Source: Mobula hypostoma
Taxonomy: Eukaryota
DNA length: 64,000 nucleotides
Assembly (NCBI RefSeq): GCF_963921235.1
Contig: NC_086097.1
Coordinates: 65,164,001-65,228,000 of the forward strand
Direction of reading: 5' to 3'
Part shown: in pieces, positions 8,169 through 64,000 of the stretch
Layout of the letters: each line of letters opens with the position of its first letter
Position numbering within the stretch: the stretch's first letter is position 1
Made by a program: the position numbers and the translations under genes
Notes under the pieces: generated by a model
Database searches by the model: none
What the model saw: the letters and a program-made list of their open reading frames with translations, nothing else
What the model was told of the DNA's origin: nothing

Positions 8169-11100
8169 TTTCTTTCTTTCTTTCTTTTTAAATCTTTTTA
8201 TTGAGTAAGTATACAAAAAAGGTAAGCCATATAAACATTAATACAATGTTAAAGTATAATAAAATTCCAAAAGATAACAATACCAAAAAGAAAATACTAC
8301 AAACAATGTAATTTAAGCATAAGAAACCAAGATAACATAATAGTATACTAGATTTTATATATATCAATGGAAAAAAAGAAAAAAAAACCCCCCCAAAAAA
8401 AACCCACCGTGCAACTAACTAAAAGCAAAGCAAAGCAATGGGCTAACTTGAAACCAAACAGAGTTAAACTTAAAATCACGTCCTCAATCCCGACCTCCAT
8501 TAAAACAGTGAAAAAAAACAAGAAGGGTAAATATTACATTAAATGAAAATATCGAATAAAAGGTCCCCAAATCTGTTCAAATTTAAATGAAGAATCATAA
8601 AGGTTACTTCTAATTTTCTCCAGATTCAAACATAAAATCGTCTGAGAAAACCAAAAAAAGGTAGTTGGAGCATTAAGCTCTTTCCAATGTTGTAAAATAC
8701 ATCTTTTCGCCATTAAAGTAAGAAATGCAATCATTCTACGGGCTGAAGGGGAAAGATTACTAGAAATTTTAGGTAGTCCAAAGATAGCAGTAATAGGGTG
8801 AGGAGAGATATCTATATTTAATACCTTAGAAATAATATTGAAAATATCTCTCCAAAAAGTTTCCAAAGTAGGGCAAGACCAAAACATGTGAGTTAAAGAG
8901 GCTATCTGCCCCGAACATCTATCACAGAAAGGATTAATATGCGAGTAAAAACGCGCTAACTTATCTTTGGACATATGTGCTCTATGCACCACTTTAAATT
9001 GAATTAGGGAATGTTTAGCACAAATAGAGGAAGTATTAACTAATTGTAAAATCTGCCCCCAATCATCCACAGAAATGGTAAGCCCCAATTCCTGTTCCCA
9101 ATCTACCCTAATCTTATCAAATGGAGCTTTCCTGAGTTTCATAATAATATTATAAATCATAGCCGATGCACCTTTCTGACATGGATTAAGGTTAATTATC
9201 GAATCTAAAATATATATAGGAGGAAGCATTGGAAAGGAAGGAAGTATAGTACTTAGAAAATTTCTAACTTGTAAATATCTAAAAAAATGTATTCTTGATA
9301 GGTTATATTTATTAGATAATTGTTCAAAAGACATAAGGGAACCATCTAAAAATAAATCCAAAAACCGTAAAATACCCTTAGTCTTCCAAGTTTGAAAAGC
9401 GCGATCCGTAAAAGAGGGAGGAAAAAATGTTACCTAAAATAGGAATCGCTAACCCGAATTGATTAAGATCAAAAAATTTTCTGAATTGAAACCAAATACG
9501 CAAAGCATATTTAACGATCGGGTTAGAGACCTGCTTAAGGCGTTTCGAATCAAAAGGAAGAGATGAACCTAAAATAGAACCAAGTGTATAACCCTGAACA
9601 GATTGTAATTCCAATGCTACCCATTTAGGAATAGATAGTATATCCCGGTCAAGTAACCAAAATTTCATATGTCGAATATTAATAGCCCAATAATAAAATC
9701 TAAAGTTAGGTAATGCTAAACCTCCATCTCTCTTAGCTTTCTGTAAATGTATTTTACCCAGTCTCGGATTCTTATTCTGCCAAATAAATGAAGAAATTTT
9801 AGAGTCGACTTTATCAAAAAAAGATTTAGGAACGAAAATTGGTAATGCCTGAAACACATATAAAAATTTTGGCAAAAAAAACATCTTAACTGCATTAATA
9901 CGACCAATCAAAGTTAAATATAAAGGAAACCATTTAGATGAAAGTTGAGTAATATGGTCTATTAATGGTAAAAAGTTAGTCTTAAATAAATCTTTATGTT
10001 TACAAGTAATTTTAATCCCAAGATATGAAAGGTAATTATTAATCAATTTAAATGGAAATTTATAATATAAGGGAAGATGTTTATTAATCGGAAAAAGTTC
10101 ACTCTTACTAAGATTTAATTTATAACCTGAGAAAAGACCAAATTGTGCTAATAACTCTAAAACAGCAGGAATAGATCTCTCAGGATTAGAAATATATAAA
10201 AGTAAATCATCAGCATAGAGTGATAATTTATGGGACTTTAATCCCCGAGTTATCCCAGTAATATTTGAAGATTCTCGAATAGCAATTGCAAGAGGTTCTA
10301 ATGCAATATCAAATAATAGGGGACTAAGAGGACAGCCTTGTCGAGTACCACGAAAGAGAGGAAAAAAAGGTGAGTTTAAAGAGTTAGTACGAACCGAGGC
10401 TACAGGGGAGTGATATAACAGTTTAATCCAGGATATAAATTTCAGGCTAAAATTAAACATTTCAAGCACCTTAAATAAATAAGGCCATTCTACTCTATCA
10501 AAAGCTTTCTCGGCATCTAAAGAAATAACACACTCAGGAACATTTTGTGAGGGAGTATAAACGATATTTAACAATGTACGAATATTATAAAAAGAGTAAC
10601 GACCTTTAATAAAACCCGTTTGGTCTTCCGAAATAATAGAAGGAAGTACTTTTTCTAGTCTATTTGCTAATAACTTAGAAAAGACTTTAGAATCAACATT
10701 TAATAAAGATATTGGTCTATAAGATGCACATTGAGCAGGGTCTTTATCCTTCTTTAGTATTAAAGAAATTGATGCTCTATTAAAAGATTCCGGAAGTTTA
10801 CCAAGTTTCAAAGAAGCCTCAAAAACCTTATAGAGCCAGGGAATCAATAAAGAAGCAAAACATTTATAAAATTCAACGGTAAACCCATCAGGGCCAGGAG
10901 CTTTCCCCAGATTCATAGAAAAAATAACATTCTTAATCTCATCCATTGTAATGGAAGTATCTAATAAAGAAGACATATCCTGTGAAATCTGAGGAAAGTC
11001 TAACTTATCTAGAAAATCATTCATATATTTAGAATCTCGAGGAGACTCTGATTGATATAAAGAAGAATAAAAATCACAAAAGGTTTGATTAATCCCCACA

Positions 11101-12118
11101 TGATCCAATATCAATCGATCATTTTGGTTATAAATCTGATTGATTTGAGATTTAACATAATTAGATTTCAATTGATTAGCCAGCAGCTTGCCAATTTTAT
11201 CACTGTGAACATAAAAATCACTTCTTGTTTTCTTTAATTGGTTTACAATCGAGGACGAGAGTAGTAAACTGTGTTCCATTTGAAGTTCAGTTCTTTGTTT
11301 GTATAGCTCCTCAGAAGGAGCCATAACATATTTCTTATCAATTTCTTTAATCTTGTCCACAATTGCCATCTCCTCCTGCTTCTGTTTCTTCCTCAAAGCA
11401 ACGGAATACGAAATAATCTGACCCCGAATATAGGCTTTAAAAGTGTCCCAAAGAGTGTTAACCGAAATATCTTCTGTATGGTTAATTATAAAAAAAGCTC
11501 AATCTGTTCATTCATAAAATTAACAAAGTCCGAGTCCTGAAGCAACAGCGAATTAAAACGCCATTGTCTATTGTTTGGTATATTGGCCATAATTTTAATA
11601 GAAAGCTTAAGTGGAGCATGATCCGAAATGGTTATAGAATCATAATCACATTTAACCACTGAAGGAATGAGACGAGAATCAATAAAAAAATAATCAATTC
11701 TTGAATAGGAATGATGAACATGTGAAAAAAAGGAAAAATCTTTTTCCTGAGGATGCAGAAAACGTCAAATATCCGTCGACCCAGAATCAGAAAGGAAAAA
11801 ATTAATCAAATTTGCAGATTTATTAGGTAAAGTCCGTAAAGGAGCCGAACGGTCCAAAGCTGGAGATAAACAGGTATTAAGATCTCCGCCCCAAATCAAT
11901 GAAAACTCGTTCAAATTCGGAAACTGATCAAACAATGATTTATAAAATTCCGGACAATCCATATTAGGAGCATAAACATTAACCAAAACTACTTTTTTAT
12001 TAAATAGTAAACCACTAACCAATAAAAATCTACCATTCGGATCAGAGATAATATCCTGTTGTATAAAAGTAACTGAGGAATCTATAAAAATAGAGACGCC
12101 TCGAATCTTAGCATTGGA
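8169..12118 (-). mobile_element. Young 5'-truncated L1-clade LINE (APE, RT, CCHC), near-intact ORF2
   Basis: VNVYAPN, GGDLN, SRIDYF, SDHAP (APE); GKAPGPDGF, YRPISLLN, SLDAEKAFD, GTRQGCPLSP, LYADD (RT); CDRC..THMFWSC knuckle; AATAAA plus (AAAG)n tail; perfect 13-bp TSD aactcagaaccct at 8156-8168 and 12119-12131. Confidence 0.95.
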
Positions 12119-12804: not shown

Positions 12805-13060
12805 ACATAGTAGGAAACCATTCAACCCAGTGAATCTATGCTACTTTTCAGAGAAATCCTATCAATCCCTTTCTCTCACTTAGTTCCCTGCAATCTGTTA
12901 TCCAGCAACTGCCCAGTAACAAAACCGATTCTCTGACCACCCACTACAAACAGGGACAATTTAGTTGCTGAATCACTCACAACCACCATGTCTTTGTGTC
13001 ATGGGAGGAAACTGGTGCACCTAGGAGAAACCTGCATGATCAAAGGGAGAATATACAGGG
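12805..13060 (-). mobile_element. Degenerate V-SINE-like element
   Basis: atgtctttgtgtcatgggaggaaactggtgcacctaggagaaacctgc V-domain-like text. Confidence 0.5.
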
Positions 13061-13358
13061 TCATATTATCTTCACAGATGCTGCCTGACCTGCGGCACTC
13101 CTCCAGAAATTTGCTTTCTGATCAACATCCTATCAGGTTTGAGATAAGCAACATCTAGCCAAGGACTTTCCCTCTTGACCATACTTCCTTATATGTCAGT
13201 GGATTAAGTGTATTCTCTGCTGAAAAATACTGGCTCACATTGTCTAGGGTGCATTTGATTTGTAACTTTCTACCACGGTTCTTCTGTATTGATGATGGGA
13301 ACTTCAGCCTCACAGTTTCTGGAGCATTACAATTTACTGTCAAATACATTACACTTAC

Positions 13359-13425
13359 CTTCACAGCCCTTTTAGGAGTCTCAACCAGGATGGGAGGCAA
13401 GATTCCTTTGTAAAAGCCAAGAATC
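13359..13425 (-). CDS. slc25a21: slc25a21 internal coding exon (probably equivalent to human exon 4)
   Basis: Minus strand tctatttttaattag|G ATT CTT GGC TTT TAC AAA GGA ... GCT GTG AAG|gtaagt; 67 nt, phase 2-0; reads (G)ILGFYKGILPPILVETPKRAVK versus recalled human GLFGFYKGILPPILAETPKRAVK; splices in frame to the 46751-46834 exon. Confidence 0.95.
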
Positions 13426-14061
13426 CTAATTAAAAATAGAAAAAAGTAACTTACACATTCAAAGCATTATTAAATAATTCAGTGTGAATGCTTGCTAATC
13501 CAAAAGTGTGAAAACAATCTTAGAAACTGTTTTTCCCCCATTGAAAATGGTGATAATTTCCAAAGTTAGCATGATGAAAAACAATTGATATTATAACTTA
13601 CTGAGACAGAAGTGGCTGTTTTCTTTACATCTTATTTGTATTAAATACTCTATTTCTGAGTATTGCCATCAGAAATTTATGAGGAAAGGAAACAATTTCT
13701 TTGTGGATTTTTTTTCTCTGGGTATTAAATACTTCCAGCAAACCAAGATATTGAGAAATTAAGTAGTTATTGGGACAAGATCCGAAAGAGACAATCTGTC
13801 GTAAAAGATGGAAATATCTTTGCTCCCCAAGGTGTTTCAAAATCATGATACAGTTTTCACAAAGTGAGGCCTGTTAAAAATAAAACAAAACTACTGGAAA
13901 TACCAGCAGGTCAGGCAGCAAGTGTGAAAAGAGAGAAACTGTTTATATTTCAGGTTGTGACTTTTCACCAGAACGAGGAAAGGACAGAAGTACTGTAAAA
14001 GATGTTTTAAATTCTGAGAAAAAGGGGGCTGGACAGATTAAAATAAATATTTATGAAAAGG

Positions 14062-16246: not shown

Positions 16247-18035
16247 CAATTAAAGCCTTAATGCCAATAAGGCTTCTAAATGTGCTAGTAAATGTTATAG
16301 GTAATGTATATATGTCCCACACTGCAAAGACGGAAAATTTGGTTTGTGCTTATATTTGATAAAAGAAAAAAATCACCTGCAGGATTGAGTTTCTGTCTGT
16401 TACAATTAATTTTACTGGAGCATTAGTAAAACTAAAGTTATTTTAGTTGACTTTTTAATCAGTTTGTTCTTAACCAATAGATTGATACTCTTAAAAAAAA
16501 GACAAACCCAAATCAATTATATTAGTAAAGCAAAGTCAGCTATCTTAAATAACAAGAATAATTATTTTAAAAATAAGTAAATAAAAGTGCTGCTAAATTT
16601 TGCTAGTTCATGGATAATTTAATGTCTGCAATCATATGAATAAATCTGAGTAAAAGCATGAAGTATAATCCAATTTGTGCAATTTTAATTATACTTCAAA
16701 TACATTTCCCAACTTTTACTGAAGGTGAAAATTCGACCCCATGAAATCTAAAATGCAAGGCAAAATGGTTTTGCTCATATAGGAATTATTGTAAATTAAA
16801 ACATCAAGTATCCAATATATTTTCAAATTAAGTATGAGACCAGATGTTTCGTTAAGTTATTCATTCTTTGGCACACTTAAGGTAGGTGAAGTCAATGAAG
16901 GAAAAAGTGCATTGGATGCTGTTTTACTTTTCCAACAACAAGCCTGAAGCATTACCTCTCCTCCAAAGAACTGATGAGGATTAATAAATAAACAGTTTAT
17001 GACATTGACTTGAACGGTGCCATTTCAACATTGAAATGTGCACTTTCCACTTGTAGCTAAGAGGTTCGCAGTATCAACAACTTCTTGTTAGATTCAAGTT
17101 CAGAGGACAAATTGTCAATATTAATCGAAAGTAGCAAAAATTGTCAAAATTTAGGATAGGTGGAAAACAAATTGTATCCCATTTCACTGGAATTGCCTTC
17201 ATTTATTTAACATGCAAGATCTTTTGCTCTAAGTGCAATCATCTTAACATATCATCCTGGATCAGTGCGAACTGCCTAAACGCCTGCATGCATGTTTAAT
17301 CAGCTTGAAGCATTGCCAGCAAACAACAAAACCCGAAGCAGAAAACCTGTTAAAATAGCAAGAAAAAGAACTTAATTAACAGAAAAAGAGTGACAGGTAT
17401 GAGAGCAAAACAAAGCCAGACAAAAATAAGAACAAAAAAACTAATGGGCAAAATCTCTGCTTATAACTGCAAGTAATTCCATTTGGGAAGTCCAAGCAAG
17501 CAAGTACAATTTGTCAATCTTTTCACAGCAGCATTTCAACATCAGACTATTCTTGCAATCCAGCAGCAACTTGCAAAACAGTGTCAAATCCCTAGCATTT
17601 ATTCTAAATCCCACAGTATTTGTGACAGCTTAGATTTGGCACAGCAACAGCGCGTTCATTTCATTTGATAAAAATGAGTATTACCTTCCCTTGGTAAAGC
17701 TTCGGTAATTTCATTGAATAGTTTAGTTAACTGTTCAGTTTAACCACTTTTCCATGCTCTTAAATATTTTGATTTTTTAATCTTCTTATTAATCTTATGA
17801 TCAATTGTTTTAACAATTATATTCTTAATAGTTTTTCGGTGTTTCTGAGTAACTGAAACAGTCAGATGCATTTCAATGTTTTAAAAGTGTAAAACCCAGG
17901 TAATACAGGAGGGATAGGAGGAAGGAGATACAGAAGTCTGAAGGCACACACTCAGCGATTCAGGAACAGCTTCTCCCGCTCTGCCATCCAATTCCTAAAT
18001 GGACTTTGAAGCTTTGGACACTACCTGTACAGTAT

Positions 18036-18250
18036 AACAACAGGAATTCTGCAGATGCTGGAAATTCAAGTAACATACATCAAAGTTGCTGGTGAACGCA
18101 GCAGGCCAAGCAGCATCTATAGGAAGAGGCGCAGTCGACGTTTCAGGCCGAGACCCTTCGTCAGGACAGTCCTGAAAAACGTCGACTGCGCCTCTTCCTA
18201 TAGATGCTGCTTGGCCTGCTGCGTTCACCAGCAACTTTGATGTATGTTAC
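18036..18250. mobile_element. Palindromic mini-element made of two inverted Penelope terminal repeats
   Basis: Perfect 74-bp inverted repeat 18070-18143 / 18177-18250; flanking duplication tacctgtacagtat at 18022-18035 and 18248-18261. Confidence 0.85.
18132..18169 (-). ncRNA. Minimal type I hammerhead ribozyme motif (Penelope-associated)
   Basis: Minus strand ctGTC-CTGACGA-agggtctcggcct-GAA-ACGT-C^GACtg: conserved core, palindromic ACGT stem III, GUC cleavage triplet; stem I shortened. Confidence 0.65.
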
Positions 18251-18425
18251 CTGTACAGTATTTCTGTTTTTGCACATTTTTTAATAATCTATTCAATATA
18301 CGTAATTGGTTTACTTGCTTATTTATTATGTTTTATTTTATATGTTTTTTTTCTCTCTGCTAGATTATGTATTGTATTGGACTGCTGCTGCTAAGTTAAC
18401 AAATTTCACATCACATGCTGGTGAT

Positions 18426-19655: not shown

Positions 19656-20636
19656 TACTCAGTGGCCACTCTATTAGATACAGCAGTAGAACCCAGTGTG
19701 GGCTTCTACTGCTGTAGCGCATCCACTTCAAGGTTTGATATGTTGTGCGTTCAGAGATGTTCTTCGGCACACCACTGTTGTAACGAATGGTTATTTGACT
19801 TCTGTCGCCTTCTTCTCAGCTTGATCAAGTCTGGCCATTATCCTCTGACCCCTCTCATTTACAAGGTGTTTTCACCCACAGAGCTGTCGCTCACTGAATA
19901 TTTTTTATTTTTTGCATCATTCTCTGTAAACTCTGGAGACTGTTATGAGTGAAAATAGAAATCTACAGCACGTTACAGGCCCTTCAGACCGCAATGTTGT
20001 CCAGACCATGTAACCTACTCTAGAAAATACCTAGAATTACCCTATCGCATAGCCCTCTATTTTTCTAAGCTCCATGTACCCTTTTAAGAGTCTCTTAAAA
20101 AACCCTACTGTATCCACCTCTACCACCTTCGCTGGTAGTGCATTCCACGCACTCACCATTCTGTGTATGGAAAAACTTACCCCTGTATCTGCTTCCAAAC
20201 ATCTTAAACCCCCCTCGTGTTAGCCATTTCAGCCCGGGAAAAAGCTTCTGGCTATCCTCATGATCAATGCCTCTCATCATCTTATACACCTCTATCAGGT
20301 CACCTCTCATCCTCCGTAGACCCAAGGAGAAAAGACCAAGTTCTCTCAACCTATTCTCATAAGGCATGGGCTCCAATCCAGGCAACATCCCTTTAAATCT
20401 CCTCTGCACTCTTTCTATAGTATCTACAGATTCTGAGATACTCAAACCATTCCATTTGGCACCAACAATCATTCCACAGTAAAAATCATTTAGAATGCAT
20501 TTCTTCCCCACTCCAATGTTAGGGCTAAACAAAAACTGAACTTCTTGACCATGGCTGCTGCCACATGATTAGCTGATTAGATATTTGCATTAACAAGAAG
20601 GTGTACAGATGTGCCTAATAAAGTGGCCACTGAGTG
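19656..20636. mobile_element. Non-autonomous Tc1/mariner-derived element with a nested CR1
   Basis: About 27-bp TIRs tactcagtggccactctattagataca / tgtgcctaataaagtggccactgagtg; TA on the left flank; transposase N-terminal remnant GMIVGAKWNGLSISE on the minus strand. Confidence 0.8.
19955..20422 (-). mobile_element. CR1 LINE 3' end nested in the Tc1-derived element
   Basis: ERVQRRFKGMLPGL..RRMRGDLIEVYKMMRG; same subfamily as 24205-24705. Confidence 0.85.
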
Positions 20637-22003
20637 GAGATAGGGCAGATAGTCAAAATCTTTTCCCCCTATTTGGGGTATTAAAACATGAGTTTAAGAT
20701 AACAGGAAGAAGTTTTGAAGGGGATCTGAGAAGTTTTGCTTTCCACACAGGGTGATTGATATCTGGAAGGTGCTACCACAGGAGGTAATGCAATCAGATA
20801 CAATTACTATAGTGAGACAAGCTCTTAAATAGGCAATGCATGGAACAATACAGTCAAGATTGAGGCAAATGGGATTAATGTACAGAGGGTGTCATGGATA
20901 TGGTGGTTTGTAGGGCCAATTTCCATGCTCTCCCACTCTGTTGGGATTGATTATGCTGACTGTCAAAGTTTTTATCAGCTTTCACGGGTGAGATTTTTCT
21001 TGCCCTCTAAGTTTCATTTACACATGCAAGGTATGCAGTTGTTCAGGGACCTGGCAATAAGGATTGGTCTTGCACTTTGCAAAGTCAGTCCTGGGGAACC
21101 TGCTTGTAACAATTCCCTGCTGGCAGGAATTTCTGGGTCATTATTTATGATTTTTTTAAAGCTTTCAACAATAATTGTAATCTCAGTGACTGACAGGTTG
21201 TTTAGCAGTAATTAAGACAAAGTGCACTATTGAAAATGGGATGACGTCTGAAATGGATGAGCCTTATTTTTCTGTTTTGACTTTATCCACTTCCTAAAAT
21301 GCTATTGTGTACATTGGATGGTGAGCCAGAGAGGATGATACTTTTTCCCAGCTCTGAGAGGAGTGTTTATTTCATACCTCAGCTTGCACACTTTAATGTT
21401 AACTGTGCCTCTGTGCTTGACTTAAGTTGCTGTCTGATTTGTGGCTGATTAACTATGAGTGTTGTTAGCCACAATGTTATTTTTATAGTAAACTTTGGCC
21501 CCATGTCTCACCAATGTGGTATAAAGGCTGCTTTTGAGCTTGGATAAAGCATGTGTGTCAGGAAATGCTGAAAAGCCTCATAGGTCTGTGGGTGAAAGGT
21601 GGCATAATTGTATGCACATCTGAATACAAGAATTATTTGCATCTGGAAAAACAGTGAATCTATTTTATTTTCAGGTCTCTTTCAAATGTTATGGGCCACC
21701 TAGAGCAAAGCAAAAACTGCTTGAGTGGTCATTGAGGAGAAAATGTCTGCTGCAACGTCCAGATGCTTGCTCAATGCATAAACACTATTATAACTTACTA
21801 CTTTCAGATTAGTTTCCTTTTGGAGGTTGTTTATTTCTTTGTGGATATTTTAAAGTTGACTTTTACCATACTCCCTTCACCATCTGGCTTTATCACTTTC
21901 AAGTTAGGTAACTAAAGGTTCAATCCCAATGGAAAATTGATAGCTGTTTGGAATTTCTCTGTTTAAAAAAAAACACAGGCTTTAAATTCTACTATGGAGA
22001 CGA

Positions 22004-22207
22004 GGGACTGCAGATGCTAGAACCTGGAGCAAAAAACACACTGTGGGAGGAACTCAGTGGCTCAGGCAGCATCTGTGGAGGAAAATTGACATCAACATTT
22101 CAGGACCAGATGAAGGGTCTCCACCTGAAATGTCAACTGTCCATTTTCCTCCACAGATGCTGTCTGATTTACTAAGTTCCTCCAGCGGTTTGTTTTTTTT
22201 GGCTCCA
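22004..22207. mobile_element. Older palindromic Penelope terminal-repeat element with a decayed hammerhead motif
   Basis: Imperfect inverted arms tggagcaaaaaac..gcatctgtggaggaaaat / attttcctccacagatgc..ttttttggctcca; centre cagatgaagggtctccacctgaaatgtc. Confidence 0.75.
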
Positions 22208-22324
22208 TAAATTCTACTATGCAGTGCAATGTTATAGCACATCACACAACTGAATTTTACACTAATTGTGTGCACTGAATGAATTGGAGGTTATGCTTTA
22301 GTAACATGGGGCATTGGTGACTCC

Positions 22325-22800
22325 ACATCTGGAGTTATATGTACAATCATGAAGGAAGGATGTTCATGAACAGGAAGCCAATAAAGAGAAACATATTAGT
22401 TTAATAACCACCATGGGAAGGTTATGAGGAAAAAATGGACAGGCTTGGCTTGTGTCCACTGGAATTATGAAAAGTGAGAGGGAACTTAAAATTGAGAAGA
22501 TCCTAAAGGATGAGGAGGATGTGGAAAGGACTTTTCCTCTTACAGGATAATTAAGTATAAGGGCTCAATATTTAAAGATAAGAGATCTCCCACTTAAGGC
22601 AGAGATCTTTTTTCCCTCTAAGTCACAACTGTATTCGTCAAGGAGTATAGAAGTAAAGTTTTTGAATGTTTTAAATCAGAGCTAGATAGACATTTGATAA
22701 GCAAGGGAACTGAACATTATCGTGAATAGATGGAATGCAGAGCTGATCAATTGAATGGTGGAACGGCTTGAGGGGACAAAAGGTCTTCTCCTACTTTATC
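22325..22800 (+). mobile_element. Highly decayed CR1 3' fragment
   Basis: ccacatctggagttatatgtacaat and a CR1-type 3' UTR end aatggtggaacggcttgaggggacaaaaggtcttctcct. Confidence 0.5.
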
Positions 22801-22802
22801 TA

Positions 22803-24182
22803 CAGTGCCTATAAAAAGTATTCACCCCCTTGGATGTTTTTATGTTTTATTGTTTTACAACATTGAATCACAGTAAAAAAACGTGACTTTTTTTTACTCC
22901 GATCAACAGAAAAACTCCATGTCAAAGTGAAAACAAAGTGTTCTAAATTAATTACAAATATAAAACAACTGATTGCGTAAGTATTCATCCCCTTTAAAAC
23001 AAAATACCAAAATCATCACTGGTGCAGCCAATTGGTTTTAGAAGTCACGTAATTAGTTTAATGGAAATATCTAGAAATGGAAAGAATAAGGCACAGCTAT
23101 AAATCTGCCAAGAGCTGGTCGTCATCAAAAACTGACTGTGCAAGAAGGGGATTAGTTAGGGAGGCCACCAAAAGACCTATGACAAGTCTGGAACAGTTAC
23201 AAGGTTCAGTGGCTGAGATGGGAAAGACTGCACATACAACAACTGTTGTCTGGGTGCTTCACTAGTCGCAGCTTTATGGGAGTGTGGCAAAAACAAAGCC
23301 ACTGTTGAAAAAGAACTCTCGTGAAATCTCAGATAGAGTTTGCCAGAAGGCAGTGGGAAACTCTGAAGTCAGCTGGAAGAAGGTTCTGTGGTCTGATTAA
23401 TCTAAAATTGAGCTTTTTTGGCCATCAGACTAAACTCTATGTTTGGCATAAGCTAAGCACCATACATCAAAAACACACCATTCCTACCGTGAAGCATGGT
23501 GGTGGCTGCATCATGCTGTGGGGATGCATCCTTTATTGCAGCAGGCCTTGGAAGTCTTGTGAAGGCAGAGTGTAAAATAAATGCAGCAAAATACAGAGAA
23601 ATCCTGGAGGCAAATCTGATGCAGTCTGCAAGAGAATTGTAACTTGGGAGAAGATTTGTTTTCCAGCAAGACAATGACCCCAAGCATAAAACCAAAGCTA
23701 CACAGGAAGGGCTTAAGAACAACAAAGTTAATGTCATGGAGTGGCCAAATTAAGAGTCCAGACCTCAAACCAGTTGAGATTTTGTGCCTGGACTTGAAAA
23801 GGGCTGTTCACTCGTAATCCCCAAGCAATCTGACAGAGCTTAAACAGTCTTATAAAGAAGAATGGGTAAAAAATAGCAGTGTCCAGATGTGCAAAGCTGA
23901 TAGAGACCTATCCACACAGACTCAAGGCTGTAATTGCTGCCATAGGCGCATCTACTAAATATTGACTTAAAGGGGGTGAGTACTTAAGGAATCAATTATT
24001 TTGTGTTTTATATTTATATTTACATTACTTTGTAGAGATCTGTTTTCACTTTGACACAAAGGAGTCTTTCTCTGTTGATTAGTGTCAAAAAAGACAAAGT
24101 AAATCCACTGTGATTCAATGTAGTAAAACAAAAAACATGTAAACTTCCAAGCGGGGGTGCTGAATACTTTTTATAGGCACTG
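22803..24182 (+). mobile_element. Tc1-family transposon with both ends, long IR/DR-type TIRs and a decayed transposase
   Basis: TA|cagtgcctataaaaagtattca ... tgaatactttttataggcactg|TA; TIRs of roughly 200 bp with internal repeats; [22 protein letters not shown] and SPDL motifs. Confidence 0.93.
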
Positions 24183-24204
24183 TACTTGCAGAATGAAAAA
24201 ATAC

Positions 24205-24705: not shown

Positions 24706-25571
24706 AATATTTCCTTGCATGTGACATGTAAGCACACTGAATATATAATTCATGTGCTTAATATCAATCTTTATGCAGAGGTCTTTTTTTCCCATTCTGT
24801 CACATTTGCCTGATTACAAAATAGCATGGGCAATGAACAACCTGTGAAAAACCTAACTCTTACTGCACAACTTTGTCATTTCAAGGGATAATCAACCACT
24901 TCTACATCCTGCACCTGAGCCAGAGGAAGTTACAAGAGTGGAGTTAGAGTTGGAAAAGAAACTTTTGTTTAGCATTCTGAATACTTCCCCAGCATTTAAC
25001 TCATGAAGGTGCCTATTACTTCCCATTTCAGAAAAGAGGTATCTGGTTCTATTGAGAGCCCTGCAAACAAATGGCAAGGAGCTCCTCAATAACCCCTGAC
25101 GTCACTTTCAGCTTTTCTGACAGGCCAGAAAGCATGTAAACTGCACTTTGTATCCACTTCAGATTTTTCAAATCGGAGGGTCTGTTGTTATCTTCTAAGC
25201 AGGACTAGTATATGACTTTGCAGTAAGCGGACACAGCAACTTCCTCAGCCCTTTACCCTGATTGCAATCTACAAAGCCAGATGTTTATTGTATGAAACAA
25301 CCCTCTCCAACTTGTGTACTGTGATAGAGTATGAAGATGTCTGTATCATGTAGCTGAGTTTTCCTTTTCTCTGGAGGATTCATCCTTCAAGGATAGATGC
25401 TGGATGAGTGGGTTTTCTGCACTACTAAACAGCACAGGAGAGGAGATGTTGGTAAATGAAAGTCTGAAGAGACATGCACAGATTCTGAGTATAGTGTAAT
25501 AATGCAGAAAGCATTTGAAAGGGAATGTTAATGAAGGGACAATGAAGTATAAGAGTAAAGTATAAACAGGA

Positions 25572-25700
25572 GAGATTCTGCAGACACTGGAAATCTTGAG
25601 TAACACAAGATGCTGGAGAAACTGCTGAAGAGTTGATGTTTTGGTCCATAAATCTTCATCAGGACTGCCTGAACTGTGAAGTTCCTCCAGCAGTTTGTAA
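25572..25700 (-). mobile_element. Decayed Penelope terminal-repeat remnant
   Basis: Minus strand cagtcCTGATGAagatttatggaccaaaacatcaac (GAAA lost) followed by a short inverted arm. Confidence 0.55.
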
Positions 25701-25719
25701 GAGTAAAGTAAACAGAACA

Positions 25720-26620
25720 AAAGAAAGGAAAGGTCTAACAAGGGCAAACATCAAGGCACAGGAATGAAATTTTATAAAGGAGAATAGGGAAATGGCAAAG
25801 AAATCTAACAAGTATGTTGTGTCAATCTTCACAGAAATCAGAACAAACACTCCCAGAAATACAAGAGAGTAGGAAGTCCATAGTAAATGAGAAAACAAAA
25901 ATAAACAGACACTAGAGAAGATAACAAGCTTTAAAATGGATAAATCCCAACAACCTGATAATCTACTTTTCTACACCTTAGTTATCACCTTCCAAAATTC
26001 AAAAGATACTGGAGCAGTTTCAGTAGGCTGAAAGCCGTTGCAAGGAAATCTGTTTACAAAAGTAAAGATGTCAAGACTATAGAGGCTATTGGTGAAACTA
26101 CACCTAGAATATTATGTACAATTTTGGCCACCTACCCCAAAAAAATATCATAGAAGGAACACTGGACTGATTCTGGGGATGTCAGGTTTGTCATGTGAGA
26201 AATAATTGAGCAGGCTGAGAGGAGACTATATTGAAACATACCCAGTTCTTCAAAGGTTTGCCCATTATTTTGAAATTGTGAGCACAGATCTGTCAGAAAT
26301 GGGGAGAATGATTTCCTTGACTGATGGATCTGTACCCACAGTTTCAAAATAATGGGCAGGCCATTTAGGATTGGAAGGAGGAGAAATTTCTTCCCTTAGA
26401 GATGATGAGCTTTTGGAATCATTTGACCCAGAGGGCTGTGTAGAATCAGCCATTGATTCAATTGAAAAGTGAACAACAGATTTCTCGATTTTAGATGGAA
26501 GAGCGATTATAGAGATTGGGCAGGACAATTATACAGTATTTAAAGTAGAAAATTAGGTGTGATTTTGGTAAAATGCCAAACAGAGTTAAGAGGCTGAATG
26601 GCCTATTCCTGCTTCTATTT
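25720..26620 (+). mobile_element. Very old, internally deleted CR1 remnant
   Basis: Scattered CR1-like text (ggataaatccc, ccacacctagaatattatgtacaattttgg, aggctgaatggcctattcctgctt). Confidence 0.45.
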
Positions 26621-30313: not shown

Positions 30314-30864
30314 CTTACAAAAGGAATGTACATCATTGTGCAAAAATCTGCAGTTATTTGGATTATACAAAGAGAGAGCAAGACTAAATTTTAAATGTCA
30401 AGTTGTGCAGTGCAAATAATGTAAATGCTATAACGAGCTGTCTCATGAGACAACTGAAAAAAAATCTCAAAAACAGTTTTGGAAAGTTATTATTTACTGG
30501 AAGCCACATAGGATTTTAAAAGAATGAAGATGATAATGTTAAATGTCCATCTGTCGAATTACTGGGGGAGAAAAAGCTTGAAGTTCAAAGTTCAAACTCA
30601 ATTTATTATTAAAGTACATATATGTTATTATATGCTACCTGGAGATGGATTTTCTTGCTGCATTTACAGAGAAAAAAGGAAATACGGAAGAAGGAAAAAA
30701 GGAATTTATACAAAACTATACGTAAACAGACAAAGATGGACAAACAGCTAGTGTGCAAACAAAGGTAAACTGCTGTGCAAATAGAAACAATACCAAGAAC
30801 CTGAGTGGTAAGGAGTCTTTGAAAATGAGTCTCAGAATCAGTTCAGAGTAATGGTGAAATTTAA

Positions 30865-31553
30865 AAACTTTAAAATCCTCAGTGTTATCATTTCAGAGGA
30901 TCTGTTCTGGGTCCAGCACATAAATGCCATTAAGAAGAAAACACGACAGCACCTCTATATTTTTTAAAGTTTACAAAGATTCAGCATGTTGTCTAAAACT
31001 TTGCCAAACTTTTATTGATGTGCTTTGGAGAGTATGTCAACTGGTTGCATTACAGTCTGGTATGCCCTTGAACAGAAAAGCCTACAAGAAATTGTGAATA
31101 TGGCCCAGCTCTTCCCATCATTGAGCACATCCACATGGAGTAGTGTCACAGGAAAGCAGCATCCATCATCAAGGACCCCCACCATCCAGGCCATGCTCTC
31201 TTCTCACTGCTGCCATCAGGAAGGTGGTACAGAAACATCAGGCTCTTGAACCAGAGGGGATAACTTCACTCACCCCATCAATGTTACCCCAACCTATGGA
31301 TTCACTTTCAAGGGCTCTTCATCTCATGTTCTCAATGTTTATTTCCTTATTATTACGACTATTTCTTTTTGTATTAGAACAAGTTATTGTTTTTTGCACT
31401 TTGGTTGTCTGTTCATCTTGTTGGGTACAATCTTCCATTGATTCTATTGCATTTCTTTGTACTTACTGTGAAAACACACAAGAAAATCAATGTCAAGGTT
31501 GTATATGCTGACATATATGTACCTTGATAATAAATTAATCAAACTTTGAACTT
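30865..31553 (+). mobile_element. Decayed Rex/Babar LINE 3' fragment
   Basis: FKILSVIISEDLFW..KKTRQHLY..ESMSTGCITVWY..SIIKDPHHPGHALFSLLPSGR; tail tactttgataataaa-like ..actttgaacttt. Confidence 0.75.
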
Positions 31554-38391: not shown

Positions 38392-38922
38392 TTCTGACAT
38401 GTCTATCCACGGCCTCCTCTACTGTAAAGATGAGGCCACACTCAGGTTGGAGGAACAACACCTTATATTCCGTCTGGGTAGCCTCCAACCTGATGGCATG
38501 AACATTGACTTCTCTAACTTCCGCTAGGCCCCACCTCCCCCTCGTACCCCAGCTGTTACTCATTTTTATGCACACATTCTTTCTCTCACTCTCCTTTTTC
38601 TCCCTCTGTCCCTCTGAATATACCTCTTGCCCATCCTCTGGGTCACCCCCCCCCCGTCTTTCTCCCTAGGCCTCCTGTCCCATGATCCTCTCATATCCCC
38701 TTTTGCCTATCACCTGTCCAGCTCTCGGCTCTATCCCTCCCCCTCCTGTCTTCTCCTATCATTTTGCATCTCCCCCTCCCCCTCCAGCTTTCAAATCCCT
38801 TACTCACTCTTCCTTCAGTTAGTCCTGACGAAGGGTCTCGGCCTGAAACGTCGACTGCGCCTCTTCCTATAGATGCTGCTTGGCCTGCTGCGTTCACCAG
38901 CAACTTTGATGTATGTTGCTTG
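38392..38922 (+). mobile_element. Young Penelope-like element 3' fragment (end of GIY-YIG region plus terminal repeat)
   Basis: HGLLYCKDEATLRLEEQHLIFRLGSLQPDGMNIDFSNFR stop; pyrimidine-rich UTR; 9-bp TSD tttttctca at 38383-38391 and 38923-38931. Confidence 0.92.
38820..38857 (+). ncRNA. Minimal type I hammerhead ribozyme motif, best-preserved copy
   Basis: TAGTC (stem I) CTGACGA (38825-38831) AGGGTCTCGGCCT (stem II) GAA ACGT (palindromic stem III) C^ GACTG (stem I); predicted cut after 38852. Confidence 0.78.
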
Positions 38923-40333
38923 TTTTTCTCAGAACCATTTTGTTTTGCAAGTATTTTGTTTGCATAATAATACTTCATTTAAAAAAAACCTAAGTATATA
39001 TTATTTAATCATCAACTCTGAAAAATCTGTATTAAACAGGAAGCCCTTATGTTTGACTCCTGCATTTTGATGACTTTAAAGGTCTCATTCAAGTCAGTTG
39101 TTGAAGTCCACAGTTGAACCAATATTGACCTAGGGAAAAGGATGGAAAAAAATCAGCCAAGTTATCCAATGTTGATTTTTTACTTACTGTCAAAAGAATT
39201 AGATCAGCTTTAGCTCATTTATCCAGGTTCAACATTTGAGTCCAAGCTTAACAGACTCCCCCTAAAAAGGGACGAACTGTTAGCAGAACCCAAACATTGA
39301 ATTTTCTGAACACCTTTCCTTCTTTGCAGCCCTATTAGTGTAGAAGGTGAGGAAAGAAAGATGTGTGGCCCTTCTCTGACGATGATATAGGGGATGTTGG
39401 TGGTACAGCAGTTGAACTAGCAGACTAGTAACCCAAAGTCTTAGACGAGTTCAAATCCAGCTAGCTGTGTACTTCATTTAATAAAGAAAATTAATGTGGG
39501 CAGTAGTCCAAACCATGAGGTAGTGATAACCATTCAGTTGTAATTTTTATGTCTTGTGCTGTATTTGCCGCTGTGAAACAACAAATTTCACAGCTTATGT
39601 CAGTGATCATAAACCTGACTGTTTTTGAAGCTACTTAAATATTGACAAAATTCATCTGATTTATTGATGACCTAGGAGAAGAAAATTGCTGTGTGGCCAG
39701 CTGCTGACAGCAGACCAAAAGATGCAGGAGCAGAAGCCATTTGCAGCATCAAGTCTGTTCCAACCAACAGACATGTGGTTGATTCTTACCAGTGCTTGGA
39801 AATAGCCCAATAACTCATTAACAAGTATCATAATTAAAGGTTATAGCATCTTTTCGGGGACAAGAGAAAAGCAATGGTCCAAAAGTGACCACAGCCTGGA
39901 AAATTACTAAACAAATATTCTAGACTGAAAGTCAACACATTCAAACAACTGCAGAAGCTGAGAAAACAATGTCTAAAGAATGGTACACAAAATTATTACG
40001 GGGATACGTGCATTCATTATTACAATACTGTTTCCACTAGTATAAGTTAACAAATCTATCTTAACAATAACTACCCACATCATACCAGTTAATAATTTTT
40101 AAACACAATTATAGTTCAATCAGGCATTAATATATAAATACTTAGCTAACAGTGATAAATTCTACAGATCTCCTCAGCCTCTGTAATCTTCATTTTATGC
40201 TCGTTCCAGACATCCTTGATTCCAATGAATTACTGCCTGCTCTCATGACCTGTTTTGGGTTTTGATTGCCTTCTGATCTCTGCCTTGTCCAGCAATGACT
40301 GCTTCTGAGAACCAATCCTGAGACTTGAACTCA

Positions 40334-41312
40334 GGGTATGTCCACACTACGCCAGATAATTTTGAAAACGCCGGTTTCAAGTAAAAACGACAGGCGTTTT
40401 TCAAAATATCTCTGTCCACACTAACATGGATATTTGAGCGAATCTCCTCTACTGGGCATGCGCAGGACACACAGAAAACAAGCGAAGAGGAAACGGTATA
40501 CTTAGTGCGCGTTTGTCCAGTTACAGAGTAGAAAAACTTAAAAGGAATTGCTCTTGGCTCTCGCGCAGGAGGACTTAAAACTAAAACAAAAACAAATACT
40601 GGAGTGTATGGAGGCCTCCGACAGGGAGCTCACGGACAGTATGACCCAGCTGACAATGAACACTGAAAAACTGACCAACTCTGTGGCATTAATAAAGCAC
40701 CTTGTTAAATGTATAAAACATGTCTGCATCAGTGTTATCTTGTATTTCCATACAATGTTACATTAAGCTGTTACACATCTATTGTCAGAGAAGTACTTGC
40801 ATAAATAGGTAAACCACCTTCATACAAGCAAGGACAGAAAACTGGGCAATGTGAGTATACTTATTTATTCAGTGAGCTATGGGTCAAAGTATTTGGTGAG
40901 TACATTTCTAACTCTTCTGGCTTCAGTCTCATTGCTGTCTGTTCTGAAATTGTTAGGTTCTGCGAAGCGCAGAATCAAATATCACTGTGATGATTGTACG
41001 CTCTAGTATCAATTTGGTGACAATAAAGTAGTAACAATAATAATAATAATAAGAAGAAGAAGAAGAAAACAATGAAATGCCGTGCTGCCGCCATCTGTTC
41101 CGGCACATCATGACAGTGGTTTTAAAAAGCTCCAGTCACCCCGTACACTCTGCAACGGATATTAGGCATTTTCAGATTTATTCACTCTGAAGACCGTTTC
41201 TGAAAATCTCCATTTTCAGGGGATGAAAACACCATTTTAGTGTGGACAGAGGGTCAAAACGAAGAGAAAAAGCTTCGTTTTCAAAATTATCCGGCGTAGT
41301 GTGGACGGAGCC
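40334..41312 (+). mobile_element. Non-autonomous PIF/Harbinger element
   Basis: About 37-bp TIRs gggtatgtccacactacgccagataattttgaaaacg / cgttttcaaaattatccggcgtagtgtggacggagcc; 3-bp TSD TCA on both sides; coiled-coil remnant LLALAQEDLKLKQKQILECMEASDREL. Confidence 0.88.
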
Positions 41313-42514
41313 TCAGACTTATCTCATGCCTCATGTGTATTCACCAACTGATAAAGTGCACTCTACAGTTTTGGACTTCCATTTCTTCTCCTTGTGACTC
41401 CATCTCCACAATCCTCCATGCGCTGGTGGTTGGAGCAATCTCACATTTTCTTCAATTGAACCACCTCTTCCAGCTGTGTAAATTGATGTGGATACTTCTT
41501 TTCCTCCAATTATCCTTACGTATTATTTGGCACCAAACTCAGTCAGATCAAGTCATCACATCTTGTCTGGGAAGCATGCCACATTGGGACTTTGGGATGA
41601 TCCCGTACACAATCAGAATGAATATCTGACAATGAAGCATGAATCACCAGAACCCTCATCTAGAAACTGTTGCATCATTATCTCCTGCACAGAGTATTCC
41701 TCCTCTACATACGTCGGGGGGGGGGGGGGACTGAGTGATATGGCATTGAGAAATGTGACAAAATATGCTGCCTTGAACAAGAAGCTTTTGTGGGAAAACA
41801 ATTCTTCCAATCATAAAAGGCTGACAACATACTTTCAGTGGTTCACTTAAAGAGCTACATGATTCAAATGACAATATTTCAAACCAATGAGGGTTGTTCC
41901 CCAGCTAAAAGAAACCATTCCGGCTGAAATAAAAAAAAGGAATCAATGGAGGGGACAACCTAGCCATTTCCACATCTAGACTGCAGCAGAAGTCAACTGC
42001 AGCCTGCTGTCTTGACATGCAAAACAACTTCACCAATATCACGATCAGTCCAAGGGCAAGAGACATACACTCTGGCTGCTGTCTTAAGAATGAAAGTCTC
42101 CTGCCCTTTCAGAACCATTGCTCTATGGTTCACTGTAGCAGCCTTGATACACCTATAACTCACCCAATCCTCTGTTATTTACTCCAATCTTAAATCCACT
42201 CCACCCCAGTGATAAACTCCTATCTGCAAAGGTGTGCTGGCAACTTCATAAGCTCAGATGGGAAAATCATCTCCAACGATCTGTATGTTTCAAAAACAAA
42301 AACTCCCTATTCCACAAAAGCTGTTGAGTCCTCCCAAAGCAGTTATGGCAACTGATCCAGAGTTGCATGCTGCTTGGACATGTATTCAGTGAAATAATAA
42401 AGATATAACAAAATATTGTTTATTGCAATTATTAACCTAACTTTGGTCTAAAGTTCACCACCAGTGATTGGTCATCCATGAGCAGTGTCATTTGCATGCC
42501 ACAACGACTTAGAC

Positions 42515-46750: not shown

Positions 46751-46834
46751 CCTTCTTGCTGGAAAATTGTCTTAAAGCAATGGCCAAGGCTCTTGTAACT
46801 GTTGGCATCACCTTTTCCTCGCTGAATCTGGAAC
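46751..46834 (-). CDS. slc25a21: slc25a21 internal coding exon (probably equivalent to human exon 3), mitochondrial 2-oxodicarboxylate carrier
   Basis: Minus strand tttttttgtttcttctag|G TTC CAG ATT CAG ... CAG CAA GAA GG|gtacat; 84 nt, phase 2-2; reads (R)FQIQRGKGDANSYKSLGHCFKTIFQQEG, matching recalled human RFQIQRCATDPNSYKSLVDSFRMIFQMEG. Absent from the ORF track. Confidence 0.93.
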
Positions 46835-61925: not shown

Positions 61926-62084
61926 TTCTTATTAGCATTAAGCAGTTGTGACAGTCACTAGTTAGTGCTACCATTTGGACTGCAGTTGCCTGTTGATAGC
62001 AGATCGAGAGCTTTGATTGTGTGCCAGTCTACTTGGAATTTTCTCAACCATTCACGTCCAACACATAAAGCTCCCATAAGGATC

Positions 62085-63649
62085 CTCCCACTTCCTCCAA
62101 ACTAAAGGTGTAGCTATGGGTACCGTATGGGTCAAAGCTATGCCTGCCTTTTTGTTGGCTTGTGGAACAATCCATGTTCCAGACCTCTGCTGGTATCTGT
62201 CCCCCACTTTTCTTTTCCTTCACTACATTGACGACTGCATTGACGCTGCTTCCTGCACGCATGCTGAGCTCGTTGACTTCAGTAACCTTGCCTCCAACTT
62301 TCACCCTGCCCTCAAGTTTACCTGGTCCATTTCTGACACCTCCCTCCCCTTTCTAGATCTTTCAGTCTCTATCTCTAGAGACAGCTTATCTACTGATGTC
62401 TACTATAAGCCTACGGACTCTCACAGCTATCTGGACTATTCCTCTTCTCACCCTGTCTCTTGCAAAAATGCCATCACCTTCTCGCAATTCCTCCATCTCC
62501 ACCACATCTGCTCTCAGGATGAGGCTTTTCATTCCAGGACGAAGGAGATGTCCTCCTTTTTTTTTAAAGAAAGGGGCTTCCCTTCCTCCACCATCAACTC
62601 TGCTCTCAAACGCATCTCTCCCATTTCACGCACATCTGCTCTCACCTCATCCTCCTGCAACCCCACTAGGAATAGGGCTCCCCTTGTCCTCACCTACCAC
62701 CCCACCAGCCTCCAAGGTCCAACATATAATTCTCCATAACTTCTGTGACCTCCAACGGGATCCCACCACTAAGCATATCTTCCTCTTCCCCACCTCTGCT
62801 TTCCGCAGGGATCACTCCCTACACAACTCCCTTGTCCATTCGTCCCTCCCATCCGTCCCCACCGATCTCCCTCCCGGCACTTATCCTTGTAAGCTGAACA
62901 AGTGCTACACATGCCCTTACACTTCCTCCCTCACTACCACTCAGGGCCCCAGATAGTCCTTCTAGGTGAGGCAACACTTCACCTGTGAGTTGGCTAGGGT
63001 GATATACTGCGTCTGGTGCTCCCGATGCGGCCTTCTATATATTGACAAGACCAGACGCAGACTGGGAGACCATTTCGCTGAACACCTACGCTCTGTCTGC
63101 CAGAGAAAGCAGGATCTCCCAGTGGCCACACATTTTAATTCCACATCCCATTCCCATTCTGATATGTCTGTCCACAGCCTCCTCTACTGTAAAGATGAAG
63201 CCACACTCAGGTTGGAGGAACAACACCTTATATTCCGTCTGGGTAGCCTCCAACCTGATGGCATGAACACTGACTTCTCTAACTTCCGTTAATGCCCCAC
63301 CTCCCCCTCATACCCCATCCGTTATTGCCCATCCTCTGGGCTTCCCCCCTCCCTCTTTCTTTCTCCTAGGCCTCCCGTCCCATGATCCTCTCATATCCCT
63401 TTTGCCGATCACCTGTCCAGCTCTTGGCTTCATCCCTCCCCGCACCCCCCCGTCTTCTCCTATCATTTTGGATCTCCCCCTCCCCCTTTCAAATCTCTTA
63501 CTAGCTCTTCTTTCAGTTAGTCCTGACGAAGGGTCTCGGCCCGAAAGGTCGACTGTATCTCTTCCTAGAGATGCTGCCTGGCCTGCTGCATTCACCAGCA
63601 ACTTTTATGTGTGTTGCTTGAAATTCCAGCATCTGCAGATTTCCTCGTG
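62085..63649 (+). mobile_element. Penelope-like retroelement 3' part: RT C-terminus, GIY-YIG endonuclease, terminal repeat
   Basis: QTKGVAMG, YIDDCI, LPFLDLSV, YYKPTDSHSYL; VIYCVWCSRCGLLYIDKTRRRLGDHFAEH (GIY-YIG); frameshifts and stops present. Confidence 0.93.
63518..63555 (+). ncRNA. Hammerhead ribozyme motif with altered stem III
   Basis: TAGTC-CTGACGA-AGGGTCTCGGCCC-GAA-AGGT-C-GACTG; ACGT is changed to AGGT at 63547. Confidence 0.6.
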
Positions 63650-64000
63650 AAAAGCTCTAACTGCTGTGTTTGGCCTCGATATGTCACATTTATCTTCAGT
63701 TTGCCTTAGGGAGACACTTTGTCACCTGTGTAGGTCTTTAGCATCACTGAAGTCTTCTCTAATGATAGCTGAGAAAACAGTTCGTTTTCGTTAGCCTCTG
63801 AAATTATAGGCAAAGCTGACCCTGTATCCAGCTCCATTTTCAGTTTTGCACCAGACACATCTATTGTGATCCATATGACTTTGTGATCTACTTCAGCAAT
63901 ACTATACAGTTCTAGGCATGACAGCTCGCCTTTGTCTTATTCTGTTTCACATTCGGTCAGTTCATGCATTTATTTAATTTGTGTTTGATACTTTACTCTC

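Follow-up and report, generated by a model that had tools for sequence, protein, structure and literature searches.

The window, that is, the whole stretch of 64,000 nucleotides analysed here, contains at about 18 kb an insertion of approximately 215 bp, which lies within an intron of an slc25a21-like gene of the ray Mobula hypostoma. This intron is 33 kb long, and the element is flanked by two AG/GT-bounded exons of the mitochondrial carrier type, both on the minus strand (46751-46834 and 13359-13425). Their matches to the Pfam family Mito_carr are weak and fall below the cut-off (E values of 0.073 and 0.025); the gene is presumably slc25a21, a name based on sequence motifs. The hammerhead core of the insertion and both bracketing exons are on the same strand, which bears out the initial annotation in placing the motif in the sense of the host pre-mRNA. 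The features of the locus are the following.

46751-46834, minus strand: upstream host exon, mitochondrial carrier type; AG/GT bounds, weak Mito_carr match
13359-13425, minus strand: downstream host exon of 67 nt, 4.6 kb from the element; AG/GT bounds, weak Mito_carr match
17912-18420, plus strand: host repeat carrying the insertion; high-copy flanks, other copies continuing across the site
18022-18035, no strand: left copy of the target-site duplication; 14-nt exact direct repeat, 11-14 bp
18036-18069, minus strand: tail of a Penelope-like element (PLE), 34 nt, on one arm only; alignment to the 3' end of a copy at 63.5 kb
18070-18167, minus strand: tail-bearing arm, an end repeat in host-gene sense; starts with GTC, three bases before the core
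18137-18164, minus strand: minimal type-I hammerhead core lacking helix III; motif class as in PMC4209133
18161-18175, no strand: junction palindrome of 15 bp; parental bases throughout
18168-18250, plus strand: tail-less arm with helix II lost; starts with AGTC, four bases before the core
18248-18261, no strand: right copy of the target-site duplication; its first 3 bases overlap the arm

Other repeats are also present in the window. A well-preserved LINE in host-gene sense (8534-11498, minus strand) has two long frames with a reverse transcriptase domain (RT; PF00078, E value of 8e-39) and a zf-RVT domain, and DNA-transposon- or MITE-like pairs of terminal inverted repeats are found at 22786-24199, 30600-31536, 40330-41316, 19657-20635 and 26247-26370. 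Furthermore, two old PLE-end fragments (13050-13120 and 13877-13977), which are inverted with respect to each other and 73% complementary over 44 nt, frame the exon at 13359-13425. This inverted pair could loop the exon out and favour its skipping or the formation of circles.

The two arms of the insertion (18070-18143 and 18177-18250) are exact reverse complements of each other (74 of 74 positions), as had been claimed, and in a repeat search their pairing stretches to 77 nt at 99%. An exact 14-nt direct repeat, TACCTGTACAGTAT, occurs at 18022-18035 and 18248-18261 and confirms the insertion of about 215 bp with its flanking duplication; the length of the latter is given as 11-14 bp because the first three bases of the right copy double as the end of the right arm. 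The insert is devoid of any ORF, each arm is only about 100 bp long and the whole forms a single hairpin. At one end only, on the left arm, it carries an extension of 34 nt (18036-18069), which is equally absent from a related copy at 38.8 kb and aligns with the 3' end of the 63.5 kb copy. Loose contig ends before 18036 were found in 228 contigs of run X1.

The initial annotation had placed an inner hairpin at the symmetry centre. The hairpin, TCAGGAC-A-GTCCTGA, does exist at 18161-18175, but its centre is 18168, while the outer arms are centred at 18160 because the right arm is, on alignment, a net 16 nt shorter. This loss is equivalent to an 18-nt deletion between two CCTGA repeats combined with two extra A residues. 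Helix II falls inside the segment missing from the right (plus-strand) arm, at 18175/18176, and the view that the right copy lost this helix roughly between the two repeats is thereby upheld. Each base of the junction palindrome can be traced to the parent sequence of either arm, with no foreign bases. One position is peculiar: the base found in the two arms at 18071 and 18249 is missing from about 94% of the mapped depth and from the 38.8 kb copy, and it coincides with the TAC of the target. Either this variant was present in the source and aided priming, or one arm has since been corrected from the other.

No contig in the mapped reads of the public runs bridges the 18 kb locus, and the palindrome is known from the assembly alone. 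In combination with the complete identity of the arms and with the disturbance of assemblies that PLE inverted structures are known to cause (PMC8557442), this raises the question whether the second arm or the central deletion could be an artefact of reading through a hairpin. We consider this most improbable. An exact 14-nt duplication and a one-sided tail are unlike the product of a read error, and two older, diverged palindromes of like design, with arms about 84% complementary, are present in the same window.

The surroundings of the insertion also behave as expected for a mobile element. Its flanks belong to a high-copy repeat, other copies of which run across the site uninterrupted, as an insertion predicts; it is these copies elsewhere, not an empty allele at 18 kb itself, that show the unoccupied site. 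The joint of 18026 to 18254 was found in 23 contigs of run X1, 12 of X5, 4 of X9 and 18 of X10. Elsewhere, the host repeat contains 10-16 extra bases at the position corresponding to 18026-18027. Since both copies of the duplication are without them, their loss predates the insertion. In organisms B and C, the flank contigs end at 17948 and 17944, respectively, at the host repeat and short of the element. The summed contig depth over the element, drawn from contigs of four public runs, amounts to 5.5-8.0 million as compared to 15.3 for the single-copy flank (range 8-17); this is not a copy number, yet a depth in the millions marks a high-copy family. End-repeat pattern scans gave no matches in viral contigs, metagenome contigs and prokaryote genomes.

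Two longer copies in the window help to define the parent of the insertion.

38392-38922, plus strand: longer copy from the same subfamily, truncated at its 5' end; endonuclease end and end repeat, tail-less, 9-bp duplication
62080-63650, plus strand: broken 1.6 kb copy of the parent type; RT end, GIY-YIG endonuclease, end repeat and tail

Counted from the core start onward, the tail-bearing arm shows no differences from the 38.8 kb copy over 93 positions and 10 differences from the 63.5 kb copy over the same length. Identity with a dispersed copy argues for a recent insertion, as judged from sequence comparison. These sister copies bear out the PLE origin that had been assigned to both inverted terminal repeats. 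A direct Pfam scan of the ORF pieces of the 62-63.6 kb copy assigned no family. One of these pieces has 119 related proteins among 578 candidates, many of them with RT (PF00078) and some with GIY-YIG (PF01541), and its best named relatives are from rays, with 73-88% identity. The next ORF piece resembles GIY-YIG clusters (score of 0.95, with the family on 41-51% of the members). Because the ORF pieces at 62.1-63.65 kb match RT and GIY-YIG proteins, the parent is an endonuclease-bearing PLE of a ray. In the end repeat of this copy (63267-63650), a frame of 127 codons is open through hammerhead and tail, and directly before helix I there is a pyrimidine tract with two AG dinucleotides, resembling a splice acceptor.

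Taken together, the insertion is in all probability a recent, stump-sized product of an endonuclease-bearing ray PLE, in which two copies of the end repeat were laid down head to head in one integration. As such, it is an unremarkable outcome of the way these elements integrate. The layout itself is of a described type, a head-to-head PLE insertion with inverted end repeats (PMC3846280 and PMC8557442). According to PMC8557442, an adjacent inverted, 5'-truncated copy and a tail of 30-40 bp at one end are standard in PLE insertions, and head-to-head inverted repeats in rotifers show a junction palindrome and duplications of 8-10 bp (PMC3846280). The origin of this layout is called still undefined in PMC8557442.

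Presumably, the protein of the element cuts each strand of the target once, the two nicks being 11-14 bases from each other. One of them would prime reverse transcription from an outer start site, tail included, while the other would prime from an inner start site and thus give rise to the tail-less arm; to judge by the sequence, the target end may pair with the RNA at the inner site over 6 bases, including one wobble. Both cDNAs would stop at a shared point immediately 5' of the hammerhead core before being joined end to end, and a later deletion between the two CCTGA repeats would have made the centre asymmetric. This two-nick model is carried over by analogy from another PLE, that of the anole, the protein of which introduces nicks in both strands, extends them and uses two start sites on the RNA, one at either end of the tail (PMC11167929).

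The second arm could also have arisen by self-priming, the cDNA or an antisense template folding back near the core and being copied on itself. Self-priming on an antisense template is the explanation favoured for junction palindromes in PLEs in PMC3846280, and a 4-bp fold-back of the parent (TCAG/CTGA) is possible around the junction. Such a fold-back would, however, leave a 6-nt loop of parental sequence, in contrast to the observed centre of 1 nt, and self-priming alone gives no reason for the second arm to stop at the inner boundary of the tail, with a possible 6-bp match to the target end. We therefore regard it as unlikely; in any case, it differs from the two-nick model in mechanism only, the class of the insertion being the same. 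Another reading, in which the junction derives from a splice acceptor, can point to the pyrimidine tract and AG just upstream in the parent and to the Drosophila virilis element, an intron end of which maps to helix I (PMC4209133). It is not preferred, as the short copies have no common upstream exon.

The place where both arms begin deserves attention. The arms start at GTC and AGTC before the core, so that their ends agree to within one base, and the junction is free of inserted bases. Of the ten short arms in the window, seven have their start 0-4 bases ahead of the core, with the boundaries of old copies set by eye; the remaining three start downstream of the cut site, and no arm starts at the site itself. 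At the arm start the parent reads TTAGTCC, an initiator-like sequence that fits the initiator consensus, although with about 12 initiator motifs per kb of strand in the window such a match is only suggestive. An initiator is part of the internal promoter of the D. virilis Penelope element (PMC2377424). It is a tentative possibility, somewhat less likely than not, that the centre of the palindrome shows where the PLE template RNA begins and preserves a trace of priming on the two target strands. The PLE transcript would start at the A of AGTC and, still uncut, would serve as template on each target strand, with both internal start sites in use; the two cDNAs would then jump onto each other's ends. 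If this is true, ray genomes would constitute a very large natural data set for the undefined inverted-repeat step of PLEs. The combination of a zero-insert junction with two different 3' ends leads to a testable prediction on template start and two-strand priming. The single locus matters little, being one of very many PLE stumps, but it is a clean and young head-to-head example.

Similar structures occur elsewhere in the window. A census of arms (11 matches by profile search and 1 by blastn) yielded 12 arms at nine PLE-end loci in 64 kb. Three of the nine are head-to-head palindromes, and every one of these three has a duplication of its own and a tail on one side. Besides the element at 18 kb, these are the following.

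21983-22221, no strand: second, older palindrome; 14-bp duplication, one-sided tail, loss of helix II in the arm with the tail (host sense)
25550-25710, no strand: third, older palindrome; 13-bp duplication, one-sided tail, tail-less arm without core

The second belongs to an older subfamily and its arms are 84% complementary. In the third, the arms meet at a short match that lies farther down the tail-less arm, and the other arm has an internal deletion. The antisense core was lost at 18 kb and 25.6 kb and the host-sense core at 22 kb; a host-sense core is thus kept in two of the three palindromes and an antisense core in one, with no direction favoured. The same helix II segment is gone at 18 kb, from the tail-less arm, and at 22 kb, from the tail-bearing arm. 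Since opposite arms are affected, these two losses are separate events.

The initial annotation had suggested that such palindromes could form a separate non-autonomous family. A master locus would then produce a hairpin RNA that the PLE protein copies as a unit, always with the same centre. Non-autonomous PLE derivatives do exist in algae, and in rotifers the end repeats alone can mobilise other DNA (PMC8557442 and PMC3846280); moreover, the elements at 18 and 22 kb are alike in length and lack the same segment. Nevertheless, the three palindromes in the window have three different centres and come from three different subfamilies, neither of the other two sharing the 18 kb centre, and the deleted arm is tail-less in one case and tail-bearing in the other. 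In addition, the arms at 18 kb are identical to each other as well as to a long copy that is not palindromic, as would be expected if one parent RNA was copied at insertion. Within the window, the claim thus finds no support, and the comparison of centres and subfamilies points to fresh formation at each insertion.

Contigs from elsewhere in the genome bear on the same question. Among the best 15 of 333 joints in runs X1 and X5, at least five connect antisense to sense (18089/18212, 18105/18209, 18115/18191, 18156/18215 and 18166/18207), one of which (18115/18191) is, among the joints listed, present in two species. Their sides are 20-29 letters long with unknown letters between, mapped at 90% likeness, which makes them weak evidence either way. 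These joints suggest varied junctions elsewhere in the genome. Their depth is 5-15 times the single-copy level (227 versus 15 for 18105/18209), a multi-copy depth that speaks for the family in the case of a few joined forms and that could mean that some palindromic forms are copied as units. On balance, a fold-back family with the palindrome as its unit seems quite improbable, and formation anew at each integration is retained.

The hammerhead motif can be described as follows. On the minus strand, the core extends from C3 at 18164 to C17 at 18137, which places the predicted cut between 18137 and 18136, as it had been placed before. The conserved core positions C3-A9, G12-A14, A15.1-U16.1 and H17 are matched exactly over 18164-18137. 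There is an extra base between positions 9 and 10.1, a palindromic 15.2-16.2 and no helix III. Helix I, shortened by the junction, consists of 3 bp, a U.U and 1 bp, whereas both parent-type copies have 5 bp; the pair 10.1-11.1 is G.U here and at 38.8 kb, compared with G-C at 63.5 kb. The left copy had been described as retaining a full core: this holds for the conserved letters, which are complete, but not for the shortened helix I and the G.U pair. Similarly, the statement that it is the only intact core in the host sense is partly correct. Among the five host-sense cores in the window, it alone combines the complete set of conserved letters with a part of helix I, and is so the best preserved; however, a second minus-strand copy, at about 6.0 kb, likewise has every letter of the core, lacks helix I and persists without a capping arm. 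In the other four host-sense arms of the window, helix I, A6, G12 or helix II is missing, and none of them offers an intact same-strand partner for cleavage as a dimer. Rfam gave no hammerhead family match for the element; its two hits to mir-3926 (44.7 bits versus a gathering score of 82) were rejected, reflecting the long hairpin only.

In PMC4209133, single minimal PLE hammerheads did not cleave and their dimers cleaved at a low level; in PMC11167929, the anole PLE ribozyme depended on the protein of the element. By these precedents, the motif at 18 kb would be a partnerless ribozyme of the dimer type, predicted to be nearly inactive anyway.

The RNA of the minus strand folds into one hairpin of -172.9 kcal/mol (z of -22), with none of 200 shuffles as stable, and so forms the long double-stranded stem that had been foreseen. 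The complementary arm, which is made first, does pair over the core in folds of the nascent RNA, as was also foreseen: in stepwise folds, the core is paired already as it emerges. We estimated, from secondary structure and for monomers, the share of molecules in which helices I and II are formed and the core is free. This share of active pre-fold is predicted to be about 1e-19 for the full element, 4e-6 without the outer arm and 2e-4 when cut at 18172, and about 5e-6 and 2e-7 in the unpaired parent-type copies at 38.8 and 63.5 kb, respectively. Co-folded, two 38-nt cores are more stable as a dimer (-27.5) than as separate monomers (2 x -9.6), but the dimer is not a clean double hammerhead.

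According to the initial annotation, the element cages its own ribozyme. Sense-strand intronic hammerheads would be harmful, and the copy at 18 kb would have survived since its second arm blocks cleavage. In accordance with this, the outer arm lowers the estimated pre-fold from about 4e-6 to 1e-19, the best-preserved host-sense core of the window is the capped one, and both long parent-type copies are antisense to the gene, although two copies cannot show selection. No cage seems to be needed, however, because the parent copies without a second arm are also predicted to misfold. The monomers of this minimal class did not cleave (PMC4209133), and at 18 kb an intact partner is absent, helix I is shortened and the G10.1-C11.1 pair is lost. 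Even introns cut by hammerheads were still spliced efficiently, with only a faster ribozyme blocking splicing (PMC2995048, citing two others). Finally, the host-sense core at 6.0 kb persists uncapped and with its conserved letters complete, and the three palindromes show no bias in direction. A purposeful cage is therefore unsupported and, in our opinion, very improbable. If it were true, selection would have favoured a retroelement structure that keeps its own ribozyme silent within transcripts of the host, a reading that the evidence does not favour. There is no sign that restraint of the ribozyme motif is the purpose of the hairpin; on the basis of the folding models, burial of the core by the arm in the host pre-mRNA is probably a side effect.

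Long perfect intronic hairpins are likely substrates of A-to-I editing. In run X9, which is only guessed to be RNA and pools all copies, A>G and T>C changes were counted 3 times each, the same as in a DNA run.

How does the element compare with known systems? Among the papers that the literature search covered, no description of such palindromes in sharks or rays was found. With the minimal PLE hammerheads (Cervera and de la Pena 2014, PMC4209133), the 18 kb core has in common the type I fold without helix III, the palindromic 15.2-16.2 and the extra base between 9 and 10.1. Scattered single motifs and close opposite-strand pairs, which occur in PLE-rich genomes, are likewise found here. In contrast, helix II measures 4 bp instead of 7-8 bp, helix I is of 3 bp instead of 4-5 bp, and the pair 10.1-11.1 is G.U instead of G-C. 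The motif thus appears to resemble a decayed minimal hammerhead, two of six features being shared and three not, with self-cleavage as the remaining one.

Retrozymes (PMC6155905) are likewise non-coding, bear hammerheads and are mobilised in trans. They have a hammerhead in each terminal repeat and form circles by double cleavage, whereas at 18 kb the two motifs are in opposite orientation and one is broken; a retrozyme was therefore rejected. The domesticated intronic hammerheads of amniotes, such as that of RECK (PMC6155905), are intronic and in gene sense, as is the 18 kb motif, but they are conserved across species, whereas the ray element belongs to a high-copy repeat, inserted very recently and has a weakened fold. 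The Poseidon element PAc of the green anole (Frangieh et al. 2024, PMC11167929) has two 3' ends about 30-35 nt apart that bound a tail, as here, and apparently uses both target strands, as proposed for the 18 kb element; it differs in that no start codon is found in helix II of the ray element. The closest likeness is to the EN+ PLE insertions with inverted pseudo-LTRs (Arkhipova et al. 2013, PMC3846280; Craig et al. 2021, PMC8557442), with which inverted end repeats, a junction palindrome, a duplication and strong 5' truncation are shared. Their tail of 30-40 bp at one end corresponds to the 34 nt at one end only, their duplications in rotifers are of 8-10 bp compared to 11-14 bp here, and the 18 kb element differs by the absence of any ORF. 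With four of five features found, and clade apart, the 18 kb element belongs to the PLE insertions with an inverted end repeat.
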